Shown here one piece after another: positions 29,730 to 55,764 of a stretch of 64,000 nucleotides of DNA; the stretch's first letter is position 1, and each line of letters starts with the position of its first letter. Source of the stretch: Dehalococcoidia bacterium (GTDB taxonomy: Bacteria; Chloroflexota; Dehalococcoidia; Lucifugimonadales; UBA2985); NCBI GenBank assembly GCA_034422115.1, contig DAOUJW010000020.1, positions 41,352 to 105,351 of the forward strand, read 5' to 3'. The notes beneath the pieces are model-generated. The model was not told the DNA's origin. It worked only from the letters and a program-made list of their open reading frames with translations, and did not search any database. The translations under genes were made by a program, and so were the position numbers.

Positions 29730-30515
29730 ATGCGCGAGAAGGCCGTTCTGTACGACAAGAGGGACCGCGTTGCGTGGGTGACCCTGAACAGGCCCCAGGC
29801 GCAGAACAGGCTAGACCTGCGCACGTGCAACGAGCTACGCGCCATCTGCGATACAATTGCCCAGGACGACGACGTGCGGTTGGCGGTGCTCACCGGGGCA
29901 GGGGAGACATTCTGCGCCGGCGATGAGGGGGAGCCGCCGGAGTTTGCCAACAGCGCTTCCGTTGAGGAGATCAGGTCCTACATTGAGCCCCGCCGCCCGG
30001 CGTCGTTCCTCGGCGGCGTGGAGAAGCCGGTGATAGCGGCCATCAACGGCGACGCCCTGGGCCACGGGCTGGAGCTGGCCCTGGCCTGCGACATCCGGAT
30101 CGCAGCCGAGGGCGCAAGGCTGGGCATGACGCAGATCAGTCAGGGCGGCATCCCCTGGGACGGCGGCACCCAGCGCCTGCCTCGCATTGTGGGACGGGCC
30201 TGGGCAACGGACATGCTCCTGAACGGCAGAGTCCTGGACACTGAGGAAGCGCTGAGGATTGGCCTGGTCCACCAGGTAGTGTCCGCCCAGGAGTTTACGG
30301 ACCGCGTGGAGCAGATGGCCTCGACTATGGCGGCGCTGGCTCCGATAGCCACGCGCTACGCCAAGGAGGTGGTGCTCAAGGGGATGGACATGACCCTGGA
30401 GCAGGGCCTCCGGCTGGAGACTGACCTGAACGTTCTGCTGCAGACAACCCGCGATAGGGCGGAGGGCGTGGCCTCCTTCCTGGAGCGGAGAGATCCGACC
30501 TATACGGGGGAGTGA
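29730..30515 (+). CDS. Enoyl-CoA hydratase/isomerase family
   Basis: TLNRPQAQN, FCAGD, AINGDALGHGLELALACDIR, GGTQRLPR. Confidence 0.93.
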   Translation: MREKAVLYDKRDRVAWVTLNRPQAQNRLDLRTCNELRAICDTIAQDDDVRLAVLTGAGETFCAGDEGEPPEFANSASVEEIRSYIEPRRPASFLGGVEKPVIAAINGDALGHGLELALACDIRIAAEGARLGMTQISQGGIPWDGGTQRLPRIVGRAWATDMLLNGRVLDTEEALRIGLVHQVVSAQEFTDRVEQMASTMAALAPIATRYAKEVVLKGMDMTLEQGLRLETDLNVLLQTTRDRAEGVASFLERRDPTYTGE

Positions 30516-30550
30516 ACCGGGAATCCAGCCACTAGACCGGAGGAAGCGTT

Positions 30551-31291
30551 TTGGAAGTTCCCAGTGCGAACTACTGCACACAGTGCGGCGCCGAGGCGGA
30601 GGGAGGCTCGCTCTTCTGTGCCACCTGCGGCCGTCCCATGGTCGGCGGCGAGGAATCGTCCGCGCCTGTTCTTTACTTGATTTCCCCCAATCGTATTCTG
30701 TTTATGAGTTTTCTGTCTTTTGGCCTGTATCTCCTCTACTGGCATTACAAAACGTGGAGTCATTTCCGCGACTACACAGGAGCTGTGGCGTTCCCGATTG
30801 CGCATGGATTGACCGCTTTTGTACCAATATACGGATCGTTCAGGGCCCATGCCCACCTGCGCACGTTTGGAGAGTTGGCCGGCCGGGCTGGACTGAACCT
30901 CCGTTTTAATCCTGGACTTGCTTTCTCACTGGTGCTTGTGTTCTGGGTCCTCTCATTTACGGCGGGTGGTGTGAGCAGCGTTGAGGTTGTGGAAGTGATA
31001 GATCCCGTCACGGGGCAACAAGCGATAGACCCCGATACAGGAGTGGGGGTTACGGAGGTAATTAACCCGACAAGGTCTGAGCAGATGATTTCGCTGCTGT
31101 TGCGCATAGGCGCCATAGTGGCAGGAGTCTGGTTGATACTTCACGCTCAACCCAGGATAAACTACTATTGGGATCACGTATATGGCAGCAGGCTGCGAGG
31201 TGTGGCGGTAGGGAAAGGGGAGATTATTGTGGGGTTCCTTGGCGGTTTCTTCTGGGCTGCCACTCTCGTCAGCATTCTTTTTGCACAGTGA
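30551..31291 (+). CDS. Zinc-ribbon membrane protein (DUF4234-like), paralog 1
   Basis: CTQC...CATC, LSFGLYLLYWHYKTW, several TMs; AT-richer. Confidence 0.8.
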   Translation: MEVPSANYCTQCGAEAEGGSLFCATCGRPMVGGEESSAPVLYLISPNRILFMSFLSFGLYLLYWHYKTWSHFRDYTGAVAFPIAHGLTAFVPIYGSFRAHAHLRTFGELAGRAGLNLRFNPGLAFSLVLVFWVLSFTAGGVSSVEVVEVIDPVTGQQAIDPDTGVGVTEVINPTRSEQMISLLLRIGAIVAGVWLILHAQPRINYYWDHVYGSRLRGVAVGKGEIIVGFLGGFFWAATLVSILFAQ

Positions 31292-31426
31292 AGGGATTAG
31301 TGAGACTATAGGCTCTTGGACGATCATCTTCAGGAGAGAAAGCGATTTACCATCGTTCCTTGAGCGGAGAGAGCCAACCTAAACGAGTGAACCCGGAAAC
31401 TAATCTACTACATCGGAGGAGCGAAT

Positions 31427-32080
31427 ATGGAAATGTCGAGCAGGAACTACTGTCCACACTGCGGAGTGGAGGTGCAGGGGGATTCGCTCTTCTGCGCCAC
31501 CTGCGGCCGGCCTATGGTCGGCGGAGGGGACGCTGGCGCTCCGGCGCCACTCCTGATTTCCCCCGCCCGCATAGTGTTCCTGACAGTCCTCTCCTTGGGG
31601 CTTTACACCGTCTACTGGCTCTACAAGACCTGGAAGCACTACCGCGACCATACGGGAGCGGAGGCGTACCCAGTCTGGCACGGGCTGACCGCCTTTGTGC
31701 CAATTTACGGCTCCTTCAGGGCTCATGCCCATCTGCGCACTTTTGGTGAGCTTGCCACAGCCGTCGGGCTGTCGATCCCCTTTGTTCCGGGCCTGGCCTT
31801 TGGCGCAATGCTCATTGGATGGCTGCGATTGTTCGTTGCGGAAGGCTCGCCAATCGCACTTGTGTTGCTGGTGGTGTCTATTGCCGCACAGCTCTGGATG
31901 ATGCTGCACGCTCAGCCCAGGATAAACTACTACTGGGACCACGCGTATGGCGCCAGGCTGCGCGGAATGGGCATTGGCAAGGGTGAGATAATCGTGGCCG
32001 TTATCGGGGTGTTTGCATGGATGGGCACTCTTGCCACCATTTTTGTTGATCCGACAACGATGCAGAACGGAGGCGCGTGA
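31427..32080 (+). CDS. Zinc-ribbon membrane protein (DUF4234-like), paralog 2
   Basis: CPHC...CATC, LSLGLYTVYWLYKTW; clearly homologous to 30551-31291. Confidence 0.82.
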   Translation: MEMSSRNYCPHCGVEVQGDSLFCATCGRPMVGGGDAGAPAPLLISPARIVFLTVLSLGLYTVYWLYKTWKHYRDHTGAEAYPVWHGLTAFVPIYGSFRAHAHLRTFGELATAVGLSIPFVPGLAFGAMLIGWLRLFVAEGSPIALVLLVVSIAAQLWMMLHAQPRINYYWDHAYGARLRGMGIGKGEIIVAVIGVFAWMGTLATIFVDPTTMQNGGA

Positions 32081-40573: not shown

Positions 40574-41911
40574 CTACTCTCCCAGCCATTCGCGGAGGGT
40601 GTCCTGCACCAGGGTGTCGATTTGCGACCGGAAGACGTCGTTGCCTATGCTCTCGATGACCTCGCTGAGGAAGGCCCTGGTCAGCAGGCTTTTGGCGGCC
40701 TGCTCGTCGATGCCCCGGCTCCTGAGGTAGAACAGGGCGATCGGGTCCATCTGGCCGCAGGCCGCGCCGTGGCCGCACTTCACGTCGTCGCAGTATATCC
40801 AGAAGGCGGGCTTGGTGTCGGCCTCCGCCTGGTCGGAGAGAATGAGGTTCTTGTCCACCTGGTTGGCATTGACCTTCACAGCGCCCTCTCGCACGATGAT
40901 GCTGCCGTGAAACACCGACCTCGACCTGCCGTCAAGGATGCCCTTGTACAGCTCGCGGCTGGTCGTATAGGGCTTGGCGTGGTCAATGATGACCTGGTTG
41001 TCCACGTGCTGGGAGCCGGTGACCATGTAGAAGCCGTCCAGCGTGCAGGAGCAGTCCTGGTCCAGGGTGAGCAGGTTCAGGTTGTTGCGGGTGAGCCTGC
41101 CGCCCATGTCAATGTTCACGGAGGCAAAATGGCTGTCCCGCTCCAGGGCCGCGTGGGTGTTGGTGACGTGGTACGCTTGCTCGCTCTGCCTCTGCACCTT
41201 GTAGTAGTCCACCTTTGCGCCCGCGCCCACCAGAATCTCGCTCACCGCGTTGGTGAAGTGCTGGCCTTCGGCGAGGCTCTTGTACGACTCGATGAAGGTG
41301 GCCTTGCTGTCCTGGCCGGTGACAATTAACACGCGCGGGTGGGCAACGGTCTCCTGGTTCTCCGACGTGGACAGGAAGAGCAGCCGTATGGGGTCATCGA
41401 CCTCGACGCCTTTTGGGACGAGCACGAACGCGCCCTCGTGGACGAAGGCCGTGTTGAGGGCGGTGAAGGCGTTGTCCTCGTAGTCTGCGTAGCGCGCCAG
41501 GTGCTGTTGCACGATGTCCGGCGCCGACTGCATGGCCTCAGCGAGGTTTGTCGCGGTCACGCCGTCAGGAAGAGAGGACAGGGAGGACAGCCCACCGTCG
41601 TACCTTCCGTTGACAAAGACCAGCAGCGGCCAGCCAGTCTCACCGAAGGCCGCCTCCTCAACGTCTGCCGTGCTAAGCTGAGGAGTAGAGGTCGCGGACT
41701 GGACGGGGACTCTGGCCACGGGGCCAATGTCGGTGTACTTCCACTCCTCGTTGCCGCGGCGGGCGGTGGGGAAGCCAAGCTCCTTGAACCTGGACAGGGC
41801 CGCCTTGCGCAGCTCCCGCGCCCATGACGGGTCGCGGCCCGCGCCGTTCCGCTCGAAGGACTCGGAGGCTGCCAGGTACGCTTCTTCTTGGGTTGCCAGG
41901 CGCTGGGTCAT
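40574..41911 (-). CDS. sufD: Fe-S cluster assembly protein SufD
   Basis: EEWKYTDI, ALNTAF, DDVKCGHGA, FYLRSRGI. Confidence 0.95.
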   Translation of the reverse strand: MTQRLATQEEAYLAASESFERNGAGRDPSWARELRKAALSRFKELGFPTARRGNEEWKYTDIGPVARVPVQSATSTPQLSTADVEEAAFGETGWPLLVFVNGRYDGGLSSLSSLPDGVTATNLAEAMQSAPDIVQQHLARYADYEDNAFTALNTAFVHEGAFVLVPKGVEVDDPIRLLFLSTSENQETVAHPRVLIVTGQDSKATFIESYKSLAEGQHFTNAVSEILVGAGAKVDYYKVQRQSEQAYHVTNTHAALERDSHFASVNIDMGGRLTRNNLNLLTLDQDCSCTLDGFYMVTGSQHVDNQVIIDHAKPYTTSRELYKGILDGRSRSVFHGSIIVREGAVKVNANQVDKNLILSDQAEADTKPAFWIYCDDVKCGHGAACGQMDPIALFYLRSRGIDEQAAKSLLTRAFLSEVIESIGNDVFRSQIDTLVQDTLREWLGE

Positions 41912-51510: not shown

Positions 51511-51577
51511 CGTCATTCCTGCGGAAGCAGGAATCTGAAAGTGTGGGGCAGAGGTTCCTGCTTTCGCAGGAACGACG
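51511..51577. repeat. CGTC-tagged REP doublet
   Basis: CGTCATTCCTGCGGAAGCAGGAATCT ... GAGGTTCCTGCTTTCGCAGGAACGACG; an inverse-orientation relative of 5986-6051. Confidence 0.85.
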
Positions 51578-51631
51578 TCCTTGAATGAGTTTCTAATTTA
51601 CCACGAAATACAGGACGGACATAACCTCAAT

Positions 51632-52900
51632 ATGTACAAAAAGACTGTAACAGACAACGGCCTTCGCATACTCACCAGCCAGATGCCCCACACCCAGTCC
51701 GTCAGCGTTGTGCTGTACGTGGGCGCGGGCTCCAGGTACGAGGTGGAAGAGGAGGCGGGCATATCGCACTTCGTGGAGCACATGTGCTTCAAGGGGACTC
51801 GTCGCCGTCCGACTTCCCAGGAGATCAGCGAGGCCATCGAGGGCGTGGGAGGCGTGTTCAACGCCGCCACAGATCGGGAGCTGACCACCTACTGGTGCAA
51901 GGTGCCCGTCGCCCACCTGCGGATGGCCCTGGACGTGATGACGGACATCGTCAAGGAGCCGCTAATCGATCCTGAGGAGGTCGAGAAGGAGCGTCTCGTT
52001 ATCCAGGAGGAGCTGTCCATGAGCAACGACGTGCCCAGCTACAGGGCGGACATGCTCATTGACGAGGTGATGTGGCCCAACCAGCCCCTTGGCAGAGACG
52101 TGGGCGGCGCCAAAGAGTCCGTGAACGCCATCTCCAGGGACGACCTGGTTGGCTACATGCAGCGACAGTACACCACGCCAAACCTGGTGGTCAGCGTGGC
52201 CGGCAACATCTCCGACGACGAGGTCACCGATGAAGTGGCCCGGCACTTTCGAGACTGGAACTCGCGCAAAGCCGAGACCTGGTTCCCCGCCGAGGACGAG
52301 CAGTCGGCTCCCAGGATGAAGCTGGAGCACCGCAAGACGGAGCAGGCCCACCTCTGCATCTCAGTCAAGGGGCTGTCGTCCGTTCACCCGGACAGGTACG
52401 CGCTGGACCTGCTGAACACGGTGATGGGGGAGGGGATGAGCAGCCGGCTGTTCCTGGAGCTGCGTGAGAAGCAGAGCCTGGTCTACGATGTCCACACAAC
52501 CTCCAGCCACCTGAAAGACTGCGGCTCCTTCACCACCTACGCCGGTGTGGACCCCAAGAACGCCAAGCGCGCCATAGACTCCGTGCTGCGGGAGATGGTC
52601 AGGGCCAAAGAGCCAATCCCGGAGGAGGAGCTTCGCAAGGCCAAGGAGTTTCTCAAGGGCCGCCTGGTGCTGCGCATGGAGGACAGCCGCAGCGTGGCCG
52701 CGTGGCTGGGGGCACAGGAGCTTCTGCTGAACAACATTTACACGGTGGAAGAGGTGCTGGGCCGCGTCGACGCAATCACGCCGGAGGACATCCAGCGTGT
52801 GGCCGAGAGCGTGCTGGTGGGCGAGAAGCTGAACTTGGCAGTGGTGGGGCCGTTCCGCAGCGACAGGTCATTCCAGTCCAGCCTCAAGGGGCTGGGGTAG
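51632..52900 (+). CDS. M16-family zinc peptidase (pitrilysin-like)
   Basis: GSRYE, HFVEHMCFKGT, MSSRLF..LREK. Confidence 0.94.
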   Translation: MYKKTVTDNGLRILTSQMPHTQSVSVVLYVGAGSRYEVEEEAGISHFVEHMCFKGTRRRPTSQEISEAIEGVGGVFNAATDRELTTYWCKVPVAHLRMALDVMTDIVKEPLIDPEEVEKERLVIQEELSMSNDVPSYRADMLIDEVMWPNQPLGRDVGGAKESVNAISRDDLVGYMQRQYTTPNLVVSVAGNISDDEVTDEVARHFRDWNSRKAETWFPAEDEQSAPRMKLEHRKTEQAHLCISVKGLSSVHPDRYALDLLNTVMGEGMSSRLFLELREKQSLVYDVHTTSSHLKDCGSFTTYAGVDPKNAKRAIDSVLREMVRAKEPIPEEELRKAKEFLKGRLVLRMEDSRSVAAWLGAQELLLNNIYTVEEVLGRVDAITPEDIQRVAESVLVGEKLNLAVVGPFRSDRSFQSSLKGLG

Positions 52901-53838
52901 AGCGGGACGGTCAATACACCAGTTCTCGCTTTTAAGTACGCAGCAGTGCTGAGCGAGATACCTGCGCTCCGATGCCATTACCGCCAAAACAAACGGTTTT
53001 AAGTGGAAGCAATAGGCAACCGGCATTCCCGTGAAAACTGGAATCTAGGGGGCAGAGTGTGGACTCCCGCCTACGCGGGAGTGACGGAAAGCCGTGTATT
53101 TTTATCTCCTTACGTGACCCTAGCAAGGCCATAGTGATTCGGTGATGACTAAGATGGCCGCAAGCAGCCTGCCTCCAGATTACACCGAGGTCGGCAGATG
53201 GAGCCTGACGCAGGCGTCGGTCAAGGAACGCTTGCTCGCGGGTGTGGCTATGCTAATCCTCTTCTTCATCTCGCTCGCGACCGTCAGCCTCATTGGGTCT
53301 GTCGTTACGGGTTCGGACCGGATAACGATGGAAGGGAGTACCCTTATCACTGGTTCGCTTATAGGGGTTGTGGTTGGAGTCACGCTCCACGAGTTGGTCC
53401 ATGGCGCTGTTTTCCTCGCGTTCCATGCCCGTCCCCGCTTTGGATTCAAGCCTTGGACGCGGTTTGGACCGGTTTTCTTTGCCACATCCCCCGGAAACTA
53501 CCTTCCGAGAACGCAGTACCTCGCTGTTGCCTTGTCAACGGCCTTGCTGCTAACGGCCGCATTGGCGGCGGCCATTGCAACTGCATTCGCTCTTGATTTG
53601 CAAGGAGGCTTACTCTCATCCGTCCTGCTGTGGGCTTTCTTGCTGAACGCGGTTGGCTCGGCGGGCGATCTATTCATCGCGTCAAAGGTCATGGGATATC
53701 CAGGCGCGACGTACTTTGAAGATACCAGTGAAGGCTTCGTTGCCTACGGCCCGGCGAGTGTAGACAGATCGAGGCAGTAGTTGGGCCGTACCGCAGAGCG
53801 CCAGGTCGTTCCAGTCAAGCCTCAAGGGGCTGGGGTAG
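52837..53838 (+). repeat. About 65-bp direct repeat of the M16 gene 3' end (52837-52900 and 53773-53838)
   Basis: Both copies end CAGCCTCAAGGGGCTGGGGTAG / AAGCCTCAAGGGGCTGGGGTAG and align over about 65 bp with a few substitutions and a 2-bp indel. Confidence 0.85.
53142..53780 (+). CDS. DUF3267-like membrane zincin
   Basis: HELVH motif, NAVGSAGD, several TMs; the exact start is uncertain. Confidence 0.82.
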   Translation: MMTKMAASSLPPDYTEVGRWSLTQASVKERLLAGVAMLILFFISLATVSLIGSVVTGSDRITMEGSTLITGSLIGVVVGVTLHELVHGAVFLAFHARPRFGFKPWTRFGPVFFATSPGNYLPRTQYLAVALSTALLLTAALAAAIATAFALDLQGGLLSSVLLWAFLLNAVGSAGDLFIASKVMGYPGATYFEDTSEGFVAYGPASVDRSRQ

Positions 53839-53966
53839 TGGTACAGCGTTTCCAGCATATCTAGCTGTCTTGCTTTCCACATCTCTCGGATCTTCTGATC
53901 AATCCTTTCATTGCCTCTATTCTGTTGCAGTAAAGGTATTGCATTGTCCATTTAATTGGTGTAAAC

Positions 53967-53985
53967 TAGTTTGTAACACAAACTA
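53967..53985. promoter_or_regulatory. Palindromic operator upstream of a membrane protein + wHTH regulator pair
   Basis: TAGTTTGT-AAC-ACAAACTA perfect 8-3-8 inverted repeat. Confidence 0.6.
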
Positions 53986-54011
53986 AACGGGCAATAACAA
54001 GGAGGCGAAAG

Positions 54012-54644
54012 ATGCAAGAAGCGGACGGCGGAACGAGACCCCTCTCGCCACAAGAGGGTTGGCAATCCATTCACTCCACAATGGAGACAGCCAGAAGCTC
54101 AATGTACCTGGCGGGAACCACTACGATAATCCTGCTCTGGGGCGTGATAGTGTCCCTGGGGCTGATCTCCCAGTACACGATTGAGGCGCTTGCGCCCGGC
54201 TTCGTGACCAGCGCTCCCTGGTTTCCAGGGCCGATGTGGGGCGTTCTGGCTACGGCGGGCACTATCGGCAGCGCGGTCATAGGGCATCGCGCCGGCAGGG
54301 AGAACGCGGCCGGGGACGCTATGCGCAGCGCCGGGATCAGGGTGTTCCTCTTCTGGCTTGCGGTCCTGGCAGCCGCGTTCTTCATTCCGGCGGCAGCGGG
54401 ACTCTGGAACGCGGACGGAGCGGAGAGGATACCCCACGTTGCCATCGGCGTAGTGGCGCTGGGCTTCGTGCTGTTCGGCATTATGGTACGCCCGGTGCTG
54501 GCGGCCGTGGGCGTCGGCATAGCGGCGGCGTTCTACATCCCCTGGTACCTGGCAGGCGACGCCGCGCCCCTGGTGACGGCGGCTGCAATACTGGTGCTGG
54601 TCGCGCTGAGCGCGTGGTGGATACGCAGGAGCGGCGTCCTGTGA
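54012..54644 (+). CDS. Integral membrane protein
   Basis: About 6 TM; AGGAGG RBS; GTGA overlap with the downstream regulator. Confidence 0.82.
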   Translation: MQEADGGTRPLSPQEGWQSIHSTMETARSSMYLAGTTTIILLWGVIVSLGLISQYTIEALAPGFVTSAPWFPGPMWGVLATAGTIGSAVIGHRAGRENAAGDAMRSAGIRVFLFWLAVLAAAFFIPAAAGLWNADGAERIPHVAIGVVALGFVLFGIMVRPVLAAVGVGIAAAFYIPWYLAGDAAPLVTAAAILVLVALSAWWIRRSGVL

Positions 54645-54952
54645 CGGACGACATTGTCTTGGACGAGACCATCCACCAATCCACCCGGCTGCGCATAATG
54701 ACCATGCTGGTCTCCATGCCGGAGTCCGACAGGCTGGCCTACGGCTTCATCCAGAAGACGCTGGACCTGACCGGCGGGAACCTGACAACCCACCTGCGTA
54801 AGCTGGAGGACGCCGACTTCCTGGCCATCACCAAGGAGTTCCAGGACTCCAAGCCGCAGACGTGGGTGCAGGCAACGCCGACGGGCCGACGCGCCTTCGC
54901 CGACTATCTGTCCAACCTGCATAAGGCGTTGAGCTGGGAGCCGCAGGCGTAG
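54641..54952 (+). CDS. Winged-helix transcriptional regulator (ArsR/MarR-like)
   Basis: IHQSTRLRIM, LTGGNLTTHLRKLE, TPTGRRAF. Confidence 0.88.
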   Translation: MTDDIVLDETIHQSTRLRIMTMLVSMPESDRLAYGFIQKTLDLTGGNLTTHLRKLEDADFLAITKEFQDSKPQTWVQATPTGRRAFADYLSNLHKALSWEPQA

Positions 54953-55037
54953 TTGACGCCGCTTATACTGAGCCTGTCGAAGTATGAGCGGTGTCGTTCA
55001 TCATAACCAACGCCTGTAGAGAATATCAGCAGGCATC

Positions 55038-55072
55038 TTGACATCAACTATATCGGCTGCTATGATGCTCAC
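55038..55072 (+). promoter_or_regulatory. Leaderless promoter of the vapBC module
   Basis: TTGACA-17-TATGAT-6nt-ATG. Confidence 0.75.
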
Positions 55073-55342
55073 ATGAGAACTACATTGACACTGGATGATG
55101 ACATAGCAGACGCCCTGCGGGAGCGGGCGCGGCTCACAGACACGCCGTTCAAACGGGTGGTGAATGACGCCCTGAGACAAGGTATGTCTCAGGGGACGGT
55201 GGAAGCCGCTCGCCCGGAGTATCGCGTTGTTCCCAAGCACGGCGGGTTCGCCCCTGGCGTAGATCCGCTCAGACTGAACCAGCTCAACGACCAGCTGATC
55301 GCTGAGGAGACTCTCGGGAAGGACAGGCCGGGCGCGAGTTGA
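55073..55342 (+). CDS. VapB-type antitoxin (RHH)
   Basis: MRTTLTLDDDIADALRERAR...KRVVNDALR; overlaps a PIN gene. Confidence 0.88.
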   Translation: MRTTLTLDDDIADALRERARLTDTPFKRVVNDALRQGMSQGTVEAARPEYRVVPKHGGFAPGVDPLRLNQLNDQLIAEETLGKDRPGAS

Positions 55343-55764
55343 TAATCCCGGACCTCAATCTGCTTGTCTACGCCCACTACGACGGAGCGCCTCACCACAA
55401 GGCCGCCAAGGGCTGGTGGGAGGGCTTGGTCAACGGCTCGGAGCGAGTGGGGGTCCCGTGGGCTGTGGCGACGGGCTTTGTCAGGCTGATGACCCATCCC
55501 AGGGTGGTCACCAATCCGGCAACCCCGGCGGAGGCGATTGACTATATTCAGGAGTGGTTCCGATTTCCCCACGTCATGCCCATCAACCCCGGGACGGACC
55601 ACCTTGCCCACCTCCGGCAGAGCCTTGTCGCGGCCGGCGTCGGCGCTGACCTGGTGACTGACGCACATCTGGCCTCCATAGCTATGGAGTACCAGGCGGA
55701 ACTCCACTCCAACGACGTCGACTTCAGCCGCTTCCCCGGCCTCCGCTGGCGCAATCCCCTCTGA
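55339..55764 (+). CDS. vapC: PIN-domain toxin VapC
   Basis: IPDLNLLVYA, FVRLMTHP, TDAHLA, SNDVDFSRFPGLRWRNPL. Confidence 0.92.
   Translation: MIIPDLNLLVYAHYDGAPHHKAAKGWWEGLVNGSERVGVPWAVATGFVRLMTHPRVVTNPATPAEAIDYIQEWFRFPHVMPINPGTDHLAHLRQSLVAAGVGADLVTDAHLASIAMEYQAELHSNDVDFSRFPGLRWRNPL

Follow-up and report, generated by a model that had tools for sequence, protein, structure and literature searches.

We analysed a 64,000-nucleotide stretch of DNA (hereafter the window: positions 41,352 to 105,351 of contig DAOUJW010000020.1, GenBank assembly GCA_034422115.1) from a Dehalococcoidia bacterium, in which a single accessory gene of the DUF3267 family stands behind a core gene for an M16 family peptidase and is followed by a second copy of that core gene's 3' end. 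The contig (C20) belongs to genome G000, a metagenome-assembled genome (MAG) of 2.31 Mb in 26 contigs that is 95% complete and whose nearest public relatives are Dehalococcoidia MAGs; six congeners (G001-G006, of which G003 is the closest relative) were used for comparison. The peptidase gene, the target of the rearrangement, occupies positions 51581-52900 of the plus strand (Pfam Peptidase_M16 1e-37, Peptidase_M16_C 6e-41) and is kept in 37 of 41 relatives. Its true start is likely to lie further inside this open reading frame (ORF), homologues being called at 422 aa. Its stop codon is followed by 118 bp of unique DNA (52901-53018, 51% GC) and by a doublet of repetitive extragenic palindromic (REP) sequences (53019-53141; hairpin arms 53023-53052 and 53055-53086) of families D3, D7 and D16, which have dozens of copies dispersed over most contigs of G000. 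The DUF3267 gene, which encodes a putative membrane zincin peptidase, comes next on the plus strand at 53142-53780 (Pfam DUF3267 E = 1e-16; HELVH motif); the database record starts at the ATG at 53145 and has 211 aa (211/212-aa product). It runs into the second copy of the peptidase 3' end, behind which lie 89 bp of unique DNA (53839-53927, 44% GC), ending where conservation among the congeners resumes.

The repeat consists of the last 64 bp of the peptidase gene (copy 1, 52837-52900, plus strand, in frame up to its TAG), which recur as 66 bp at 53773-53838 (copy 2, plus strand) with a start-to-start spacing of 936/938 bp. The peptidase ORF ends ...GGCAGTGGTGGGGCCGTTCCGCAGCGACAGGTCATTCCAGTCCAGCCTCAAGGGGCTGGGGTAG, and positions 53773-53838 read GGCAGTAGTTGGGCCGTACCGCAGAGCGCCAGGTCGTTCCAGTCAAGCCTCAAGGGGCTGGGGTAG. 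Aligned over 66 columns, the copies are identical at 58 (88%), with six substitutions and one 2-bp AG insertion in copy 2; their gap-free core (52859-52900 versus 53797-53838) is 93% identical over 42 nt, and the longest exact stretch common to both is 21 bp. Whole-genome searches of G000 return exactly two sites (100% and 88%; E = 1.5e-13), so the repeat is neither dispersed nor a chance match. The duplication is thus as an earlier, sequence-only reading of the window had described it, a 64-bp peptidase end returning 936 bp downstream as 66 bp with a few substitutions and a 2-bp indel. The outer edge of the copies is exactly the peptidase stop codon, at which the congeners cease to align.

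Copy 1 differs from the G003 allele at three of its 64 positions, all of them synonymous, and two of the changes are specific to copy 1 (GTA>GTG and TCG>TCA); over the whole peptidase gene, G000 and G003 are 95.6% identical. Copy 2, with a GC content of 65% like that of the peptidase gene, is non-coding and decaying: it carries the frame-breaking AG insertion and four private substitutions, and it keeps the G003 states (GTA, TCG) at the two positions where copy 1 has its private synonymous changes. Set against a synonymous divergence (dS) of 0.17 between the G000 and G003 peptidase genes, or ~0.085 per branch, the 0.06 of copy 2 (four private changes over 64 neutral bases) suggests a drift that has lasted for a large part of the time since the two genomes split, a rough estimate built on few events. 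The same counts suggest an old scar rather than a recently active element.

The insert between the copies measures 872 bp and has one ORF, whose sole Pfam match is DUF3267. GC content is 62% in the genome and in the peptidase gene, 57% in the DUF3267 gene and 53% in the spacer before it. Genome-wide Pfam searches for tyrosine and serine recombinases found no such domain on contig C20; other contigs of G000 encode two tyrosine and up to five serine recombinase domains. Both the description of the interval as a REP doublet plus one gene with no integrase and its reading as an integrase-less cassette of one gene, with the target gene's 3' end duplicated around it, therefore stand. No other match to the 118-bp segment (52901-53018) was found in the genome or in any fetched locus. 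For the 89-bp segment no homologue was found, and a search with one of its 20-mers against JGI metagenome contigs gave two unrelated chance matches.

The right-hand joint of the insert can be followed base by base. The last 8 bases of the DUF3267 gene, stop codon included, are GGCAGTAG (53773-53780, plus strand), and these same bases open copy 2 and are peptidase sequence. All three DUF3267 proteins that we compared, those of the window, of a sister lineage (contig L059) and of a third locus (contig L067), share the C-terminus ...VD(E/R)SRQ*, and their genes end GATCGAGGCAGTAG in the window, GAATCGAGGCAGTAG in L067 and GAATCGAGGCAATAG in L059. The L059 and L067 homologues end ...GAATCGAGGCA(A/G)TAG, and both close with GAGGCA(A/G)TAG; at the site of the joint, the bases are GAGGCAGTAG in L067 and CTGGCAGTAGTGGG in the peptidase allele of G003. 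That homologues in other contexts have this same ending shows the TAG of the window's DUF3267 gene to be native. The earlier proposal that copy 2 supplies this stop has to be given up: the stop lies inside copy 2 but was not donated by it. Because GGCAGTAG belongs to the end of DUF3267 and to the peptidase sequence alike, the joint is an 8-bp overlap, and by our own calculation an overlap of at least 8 bp would arise at a random blunt joint with a chance of ~2e-5. The overlap is best read as the mark of an illegitimate, microhomology-guided join and not of a recombinase acting on an element-borne att core.

The cassette occupies a slot that is variable throughout the genus. In all six congeners the peptidase gene aligns up to its stop, and alignment resumes at ~53932, or at ~55033-55055 in G004 and G006; between these points (52901 to ~53930) every congener differs. 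G003, G006 and G002 carry a minus-strand T5orf172/MUG113 gene, G005 a T5orf172 gene split by a ~580-bp insertion with two small ORFs, G001 unrelated short DNA and G004 only 123 bp. Neither DUF3267 nor a second peptidase tail is present at this locus in any of the six, and whole-genome searches found no DUF3267 anywhere in G001-G004. In G005 (locus L038), a short 'RGN'-coding stretch lies on both sides of the ~580-bp insertion and may be another target duplication. A resemblance between the 89-bp segment of the window and the G005 T5orf172 gene (QQNRGN; blastx E = 0.013) was pursued as a possible relic of that gene and is not supported, the nucleotide likeness being limited to 10-bp coincidences.

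The right edge of the slot is the conserved regulatory region of the next gene (53928-54011, plus strand), with a palindromic operator-like ACTAGTTTGT..ACAAACT and a ribosome-binding site (RBS); alignment with G003, G002, G001, G005 and L059 resumes at 53932-53937. Next, on the plus strand, come a 210-aa membrane protein and a winged-helix regulator (HTH_34; 54012-54952). This pair has no counterpart in G004 and G006 (window 53932-55032), so the flexible region is wider than the DUF3267 cassette. Upstream of the peptidase gene lie gpsA, plsY and der, and downstream lie the membrane protein and regulator plus a PIN module. In the region, no Rfam family was found, and a promoter and terminator scan of 52750-54050 gave no consensus promoter; its single terminator-like match (53445-53468) lies inside the DUF3267 ORF and is no better than those in shuffled sequence.

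Two simple classifications of the cassette were tried and rejected. It is not an integron gene cassette, since no inverted repeat follows the ORF (none was reported between 53780 and 53930), the peptidase copy follows at once and the contig has no tyrosine recombinase. Nor is it a tandem segmental duplication: DUF3267 and the next gene are unrelated, BLASTP having given no match between them when DUF3267 was considered as a paralogue of its neighbour, and there is no DNA similarity beyond the 64 bp.

The DUF3267 gene, found in 33 of 301 genomes of the order, missing from this locus in all six congeners and lower in GC than the genome, is accessory and mobile. Its closest homologue, P0004 (78% aa and 84% nt identity), lies in the same slot in a sister lineage represented by eight contigs from several samples and assemblers (L059-L066), whose flanks are ~96% identical to those of G002. 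In L059, 821 bp of T5orf172 have given way to 874 bp with DUF3267. The replacement begins 2 nt behind the peptidase stop and ends on the right in an overlap of only 2-3 bp, with no repeat, so recombinase-free joins operate at this slot. Between the window and L059, dS is 0.33 for DUF3267 and 0.65-0.77 for the flanking core genes, and dN/dS for DUF3267 is ~0.38. The gene is therefore functional, and its arrival in one or both of the lineages postdates their split. The third homologue (74% aa identity) has another context (L067 1229-7487), between large serine recombinase genes (one intact, of 606 aa, and one split) and a DDE transposase, which suggests that DUF3267 rides a true mobile element in some organisms. 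No DUF3267 gene elsewhere was found near an M16 peptidase gene, the search reaching 1.5 kb in 19 genomes of the order and ~5 kb in L067. Likewise, no peptidase-like segment lies beside DUF3267 in L067 or in the 19 other genomes, and L059 has no second one.

The sequence-only reading had suggested a recurring route of capture, pointing to a second case at 30477/31356 of the window, and that case does not belong here. Positions 30477-32080 hold two zinc-ribbon membrane protein genes in tandem, paralogues at 53% aa identity, with a repeat unit that begins ~40 bp inside the upstream enoyl-CoA hydratase gene. As at the peptidase locus, the duplicated 3' end of an upstream gene precedes the second unit; the units there, however, are homologous throughout, whereas nothing is repeated beyond 64 bp behind the peptidase gene. 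The 30477/31356 case is a tandem duplication and not a capture.

The anatomy itself does recur in G000. When the genome was compared with itself for direct repeats present in two copies at a distance of 0.3-5 kb, a scan for other duplicated gene 3' ends having been recommended, two further cassettes emerged for which G003 has the empty site. At nadE (contig C2:100486-101442; locus L069 1987-2943), the last 40 bp of the gene, up to its stop, recur 917 bp downstream and flank an 877-bp insert that holds a DUF5678-like and a retropepsin-like gene on the opposite strand. The empty site there is precise and single-copy in G003, G001 and G005; G006 and G004 have the cassette with both repeats, shortened in G004. 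Between a 5'-nucleotidase gene and a cupin gene (contig C14:24739-25972; locus L070 2240-3473), the repeat is 79 bp long, covers both the stop of the former and the start of the latter (TAAGTG), and encloses a 1076-bp insert whose 325-aa ORF is an orphan. An empty site with a single copy is present at this junction in five congeners, G003 included; in G006 the junction holds another insert, of 1.7 kb, behind which the tail recurs in degenerate form. The cupin RBS (GAGGAGG) sits inside the 3' end of the 5'-nucleotidase gene, in its last codons, which suggests that an insertion has to duplicate the junction if both genes are to go on functioning, and hence that no others survive in compact genomes. 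Inspection by eye found no end motif common to the three repeat-flanked inserts.

Some other repeat pairs of G000 are recorded here in their own right. A complete tRNA-Leu(CAG) gene occurs twice, 830 bp apart (C17:63532-64454), as does a complete tRNA-Thr(CGT) gene, 1156 bp apart (C25:121782-123037), and the duplicates bracket small toxin-antitoxin-like or DUF2442-like genes. The tRNA-Leu duplicate is common to G003, G001 and G005 and is therefore old and uninformative about insertion; for tRNA-Thr, the context in relatives is too rearranged to define an empty site. On contig C15, two-copy repeats of a promoter or 5' leader (C15:114375-115422, 62 bp, 97% identical, 986 bp apart; C15:124615-125432, 48 bp, 94% identical, 770 bp apart) may be further junction duplications.

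We favour, at about even confidence, the reading that homology-anchored illegitimate recombination, in the form of an insertion with long target duplication, brought DUF3267 behind the peptidase gene with no dedicated recombinase. Incoming DNA from a related genome would have carried the order peptidase-spacer-DUF3267. On its left side it would have paired with the resident peptidase gene, a homologous anchor; on its right side, the last 8 bases of DUF3267 (GGCAGTAG) would have been joined illegitimately to the resident gene 56 bases before its stop. Because the join fell upstream of the peptidase stop, the last 58-66 bases of the resident gene would have been kept, together with the downstream DNA, as a useless second copy behind the insert. 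The upstream copy would have stayed in frame under selection while the downstream copy decayed. Such a route would explain why no recombinase is present, why the joint has an overlap, why the repeat's outer edge falls at the stop codon and why copy 2 has decayed. Its illegitimate half is what we observe at the joint; we infer the homologous left anchor, the direction of the event (insertion as opposed to another order) and the lineage in which it took place. G000 encodes ComEC and DprA, which is weakly compatible with DNA uptake.

Insertion with long target duplication is said to have been described by Nobusato, Uchiyama and Kobayashi in 2000. Furuta et al. (2010) reported it for restriction-modification genes in Helicobacter, Haemophilus, Neisseria and others, most published cases being in species with DNA uptake genes, and left the mechanism open (PMC2853133). 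Their criteria are a repeat longer than 30 bp, an insert smaller than 20 kb, no mobility genes (integrase, transposase or prophage), a unique repeat and a single copy in a comparison genome (PMC2853133). The peptidase locus agrees in repeat length (64/66 bp), insert size, absence of mobility genes and uniqueness of the repeat. As for the empty site, each of the six congeners has a single copy and lacks DUF3267, but other DNA fills its slot and the 89 bp have no counterpart. The nadE and 5'-nucleotidase/cupin cassettes agree in every respect. The likeness to published cases extends to the small insert without mobility genes, to genome-unique direct repeats of tens to hundreds of base pairs derived from the target, and to the position of the repeat, which in the published cases often overlaps the 3' end of a flanking gene. 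In contrast to these cases, the cargo here is DUF3267 and not a restriction-modification gene, the host is an uncultured Dehalococcoidia bacterium, and an 8-bp overlap can be read where published surveys report none.

The favoured route also resembles homology-facilitated illegitimate recombination (PMC3240628), which is known from bacteria with natural competence and from conjugation in E. coli. Both would have a homology anchor at one end and an overlap of a few bases at the other, neither has a recombinase of its own, and both place foreign DNA beside a conserved gene. Unlike the experimental products, which usually delete recipient DNA, the peptidase locus would show a duplication of it, because the illegitimate join fell upstream of the anchor's end; and the anchor is, in our case, one that we infer.

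Several observations weigh against this account. It does not explain where the two unique segments (118 bp and 89 bp) come from. Many bacteria with no known capacity for transformation likewise have ComEC and DprA. G003 and G004 have in common a REP-containing sequence that lies immediately behind the peptidase stop and is absent after both copies in G000; the 89 bp are therefore not simply the ancestral flank, and one has to assume at least one further event, or else that the block was imported whole from a relative not sampled. The left joint is uninformative and the 118 bp beside it have no homologue; later REP insertions may have overwritten it. A comparison with G003 revealed no divergent recombination tract in the peptidase gene. 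The sequence-only reading had named an empty allele of the peptidase locus as the thing to look for, and no exact one (peptidase, one copy, 89 bp, promoter) was found among the congeners or in database look-ups; nor was a donor-type allele (peptidase, 118 bp, DUF3267, no copy 2). Exact-protein look-ups of the 210-aa protein, DUF3267 and the peptidase returned the window's own structure or nothing. Finally, the favoured route and three other recombinase-free routes lead to one and the same product and are inseparable by sequence alone.

One of these other routes, which we consider unlikely, is that DUF3267 already stood in the slot together with the 89 bp and that a templated patch, 58 bases of single-stranded DNA from the peptidase 3' end, was copied in after its stop. 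Template switching or SPDIR (short-patch double illegitimate recombination) would do this, with annealing via GGCAGTAG and GTAG. The extra 58 bp are edged by overlaps of 8 bp (GGCAGTAG) and 4 bp (GTAG, the ends of both genes), and the 89 bp are AT-rich like imported DNA and unlike both the peptidase gene and the downstream sequence of G003 and G004. SPDIR is moreover a described mechanism, inserting tens of ectopic bases, and the locus resembles its products in having overlaps on both sides (bioRxiv 10.1101/2023.11.22.568220). It accounts, however, for the 58-bp copy only and not for the cassette, and it misfits the sister cases with clean empty sites: in both of these, nadE and 5'-nucleotidase/cupin, the complete insert lies precisely between the repeats and relatives read flank-repeat-flank. 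A patch would need two events whose edges coincide. The 4-bp GTAG overlap is weak, with a chance of 1 in 256, and no allele is known in which DUF3267 stands directly before the 89 bp.

A Campbell-type entry seems to us quite improbable. The donor's two GGCAGTAG 8-mers would have recombined to release a 936-bp circle (peptidase tail, spacer, DUF3267), and a single RecA crossover in the 64-bp tail would then have integrated it into a related chromosome. This yields the observed structure exactly and accounts for the 8-bp joint, and 64 bp of homology exceed the usual minimum for RecA crossovers. The presence of DUF3267, younger than its hosts, in the same slot of two lineages also speaks for it. 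Against it, two rare steps and the transfer of a non-replicating circle would be required, no circle or excised form has been seen, and a signal of circular permutation was sought in the insert and not found. The candidate for such a signal, a resemblance of AGCGGGAC after the peptidase stop to AGCGGAC after the L059 DUF3267 stop, was rejected, local alignments of 52901-53020 with the L059 and L067 flanks scoring no better than shuffles.

An internal rearrangement is decidedly unlikely in our view. Unequal sister exchange at the GGCAGTAG 8-mers would have produced a 936-bp tandem, from which the second spacer and DUF3267 were later deleted. The 8-bp overlap fits, and tandem duplications that start inside an upstream gene do occur in this genome (30477/31356). 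Such a history, however, requires a second deletion whose ends both fall precisely on the two TAG stops, and there is no trace of a second spacer or DUF3267 copy; it would also leave unexplained the nadE and cupin cases, where the inserts are absent from the empty sites.

The sequence-only reading had instead seen an att-like, site-specific duplication, that is, the remnant of an element whose attP mimicked the peptidase 3' end and whose integrase was later lost or acted in trans. Site-specific elements that integrate into gene 3' ends bring a replacement 3' end, and their attL/attR repeats run up to the stop codon; examples are e14 and phage 21, both at icd, tRNA/tmRNA islands and the Dehalococcoides ssrA islands. 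The peptidase locus shares with them the repeat of the target gene's 3' end, the upstream copy that keeps the gene intact and the repeat that stops at the gene's end; recombinases of both classes are encoded elsewhere in the genome, and the L067 DUF3267 gene adjoins those of large serine recombinases. The joint nonetheless speaks against such an element: there is no integrase in or beside the insert, and the inner edge of the repeat is set by the cargo's own native stop on the 8-bp illegitimate overlap. DUF3267 stands elsewhere with no att-like segment (L067 and the 19 other loci), and the sister lineage carries it in the same slot with no duplication. The repeats of the three cassettes are unrelated and have no end motif in common, and the 872-bp (0.87-kb) insert is too small for an integrase; for both att sites to be kept while the rest was lost, a precise internal deletion would be needed. 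The att-like interpretation is therefore not supported, and we regard it as having a very slender chance of being right.

Concatenation of two strain variants of the slot by the assembler, which had been named as what would overturn the duplication, is barely credible, even though the genome is a MAG and the slot varies by strain within the genus: a 4200-bp Logan contig (SRR13587046_20666, from a different assembler) is 100% identical to window 51549-55748 and spans both copies, and the homology 5' of copy 2 stops abruptly at the gene end instead of continuing into the peptidase body. As the copies share at most 21 exact bases, confusion of a k=31 graph by the repeat is also unlikely, and from these comparisons we judge a misassembly of the locus very unlikely.

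Insertion with long target duplication and homology-facilitated illegitimate recombination being already described, the locus represents neither a new mechanism nor a new mobile element. Its value is that of a documented case in an uncultured, marine-type lineage of Dehalococcoidia, with cargo other than restriction-modification genes. It offers a readable example of how a single accessory gene settles among tightly packed core genes with neither integrase nor transposase, in which one joint is legible to the base, an 8-bp overlap with the stop that belongs to the cargo gene itself, and it is accompanied in the same genome by two more cassettes with preserved empty sites. A more speculative idea, which we think unlikely to hold, is that the repeats serve as a homology handle: cassettes would be looped out via their 40-80-bp repeats, pass between cells and re-enter beside the same core gene by host RecA alone. 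Such cassettes could include DUF3267, the DUF5678/retropepsin-like pair and the toxin-antitoxin-like pairs between duplicated tRNA genes. If true, this would amount to recombinase-free, locus-faithful gene mobility, and would explain both the presence of DUF3267 in the same slot of two lineages, where it is half as diverged as its hosts, and the scattering of filled and precisely empty nadE alleles across the genus.

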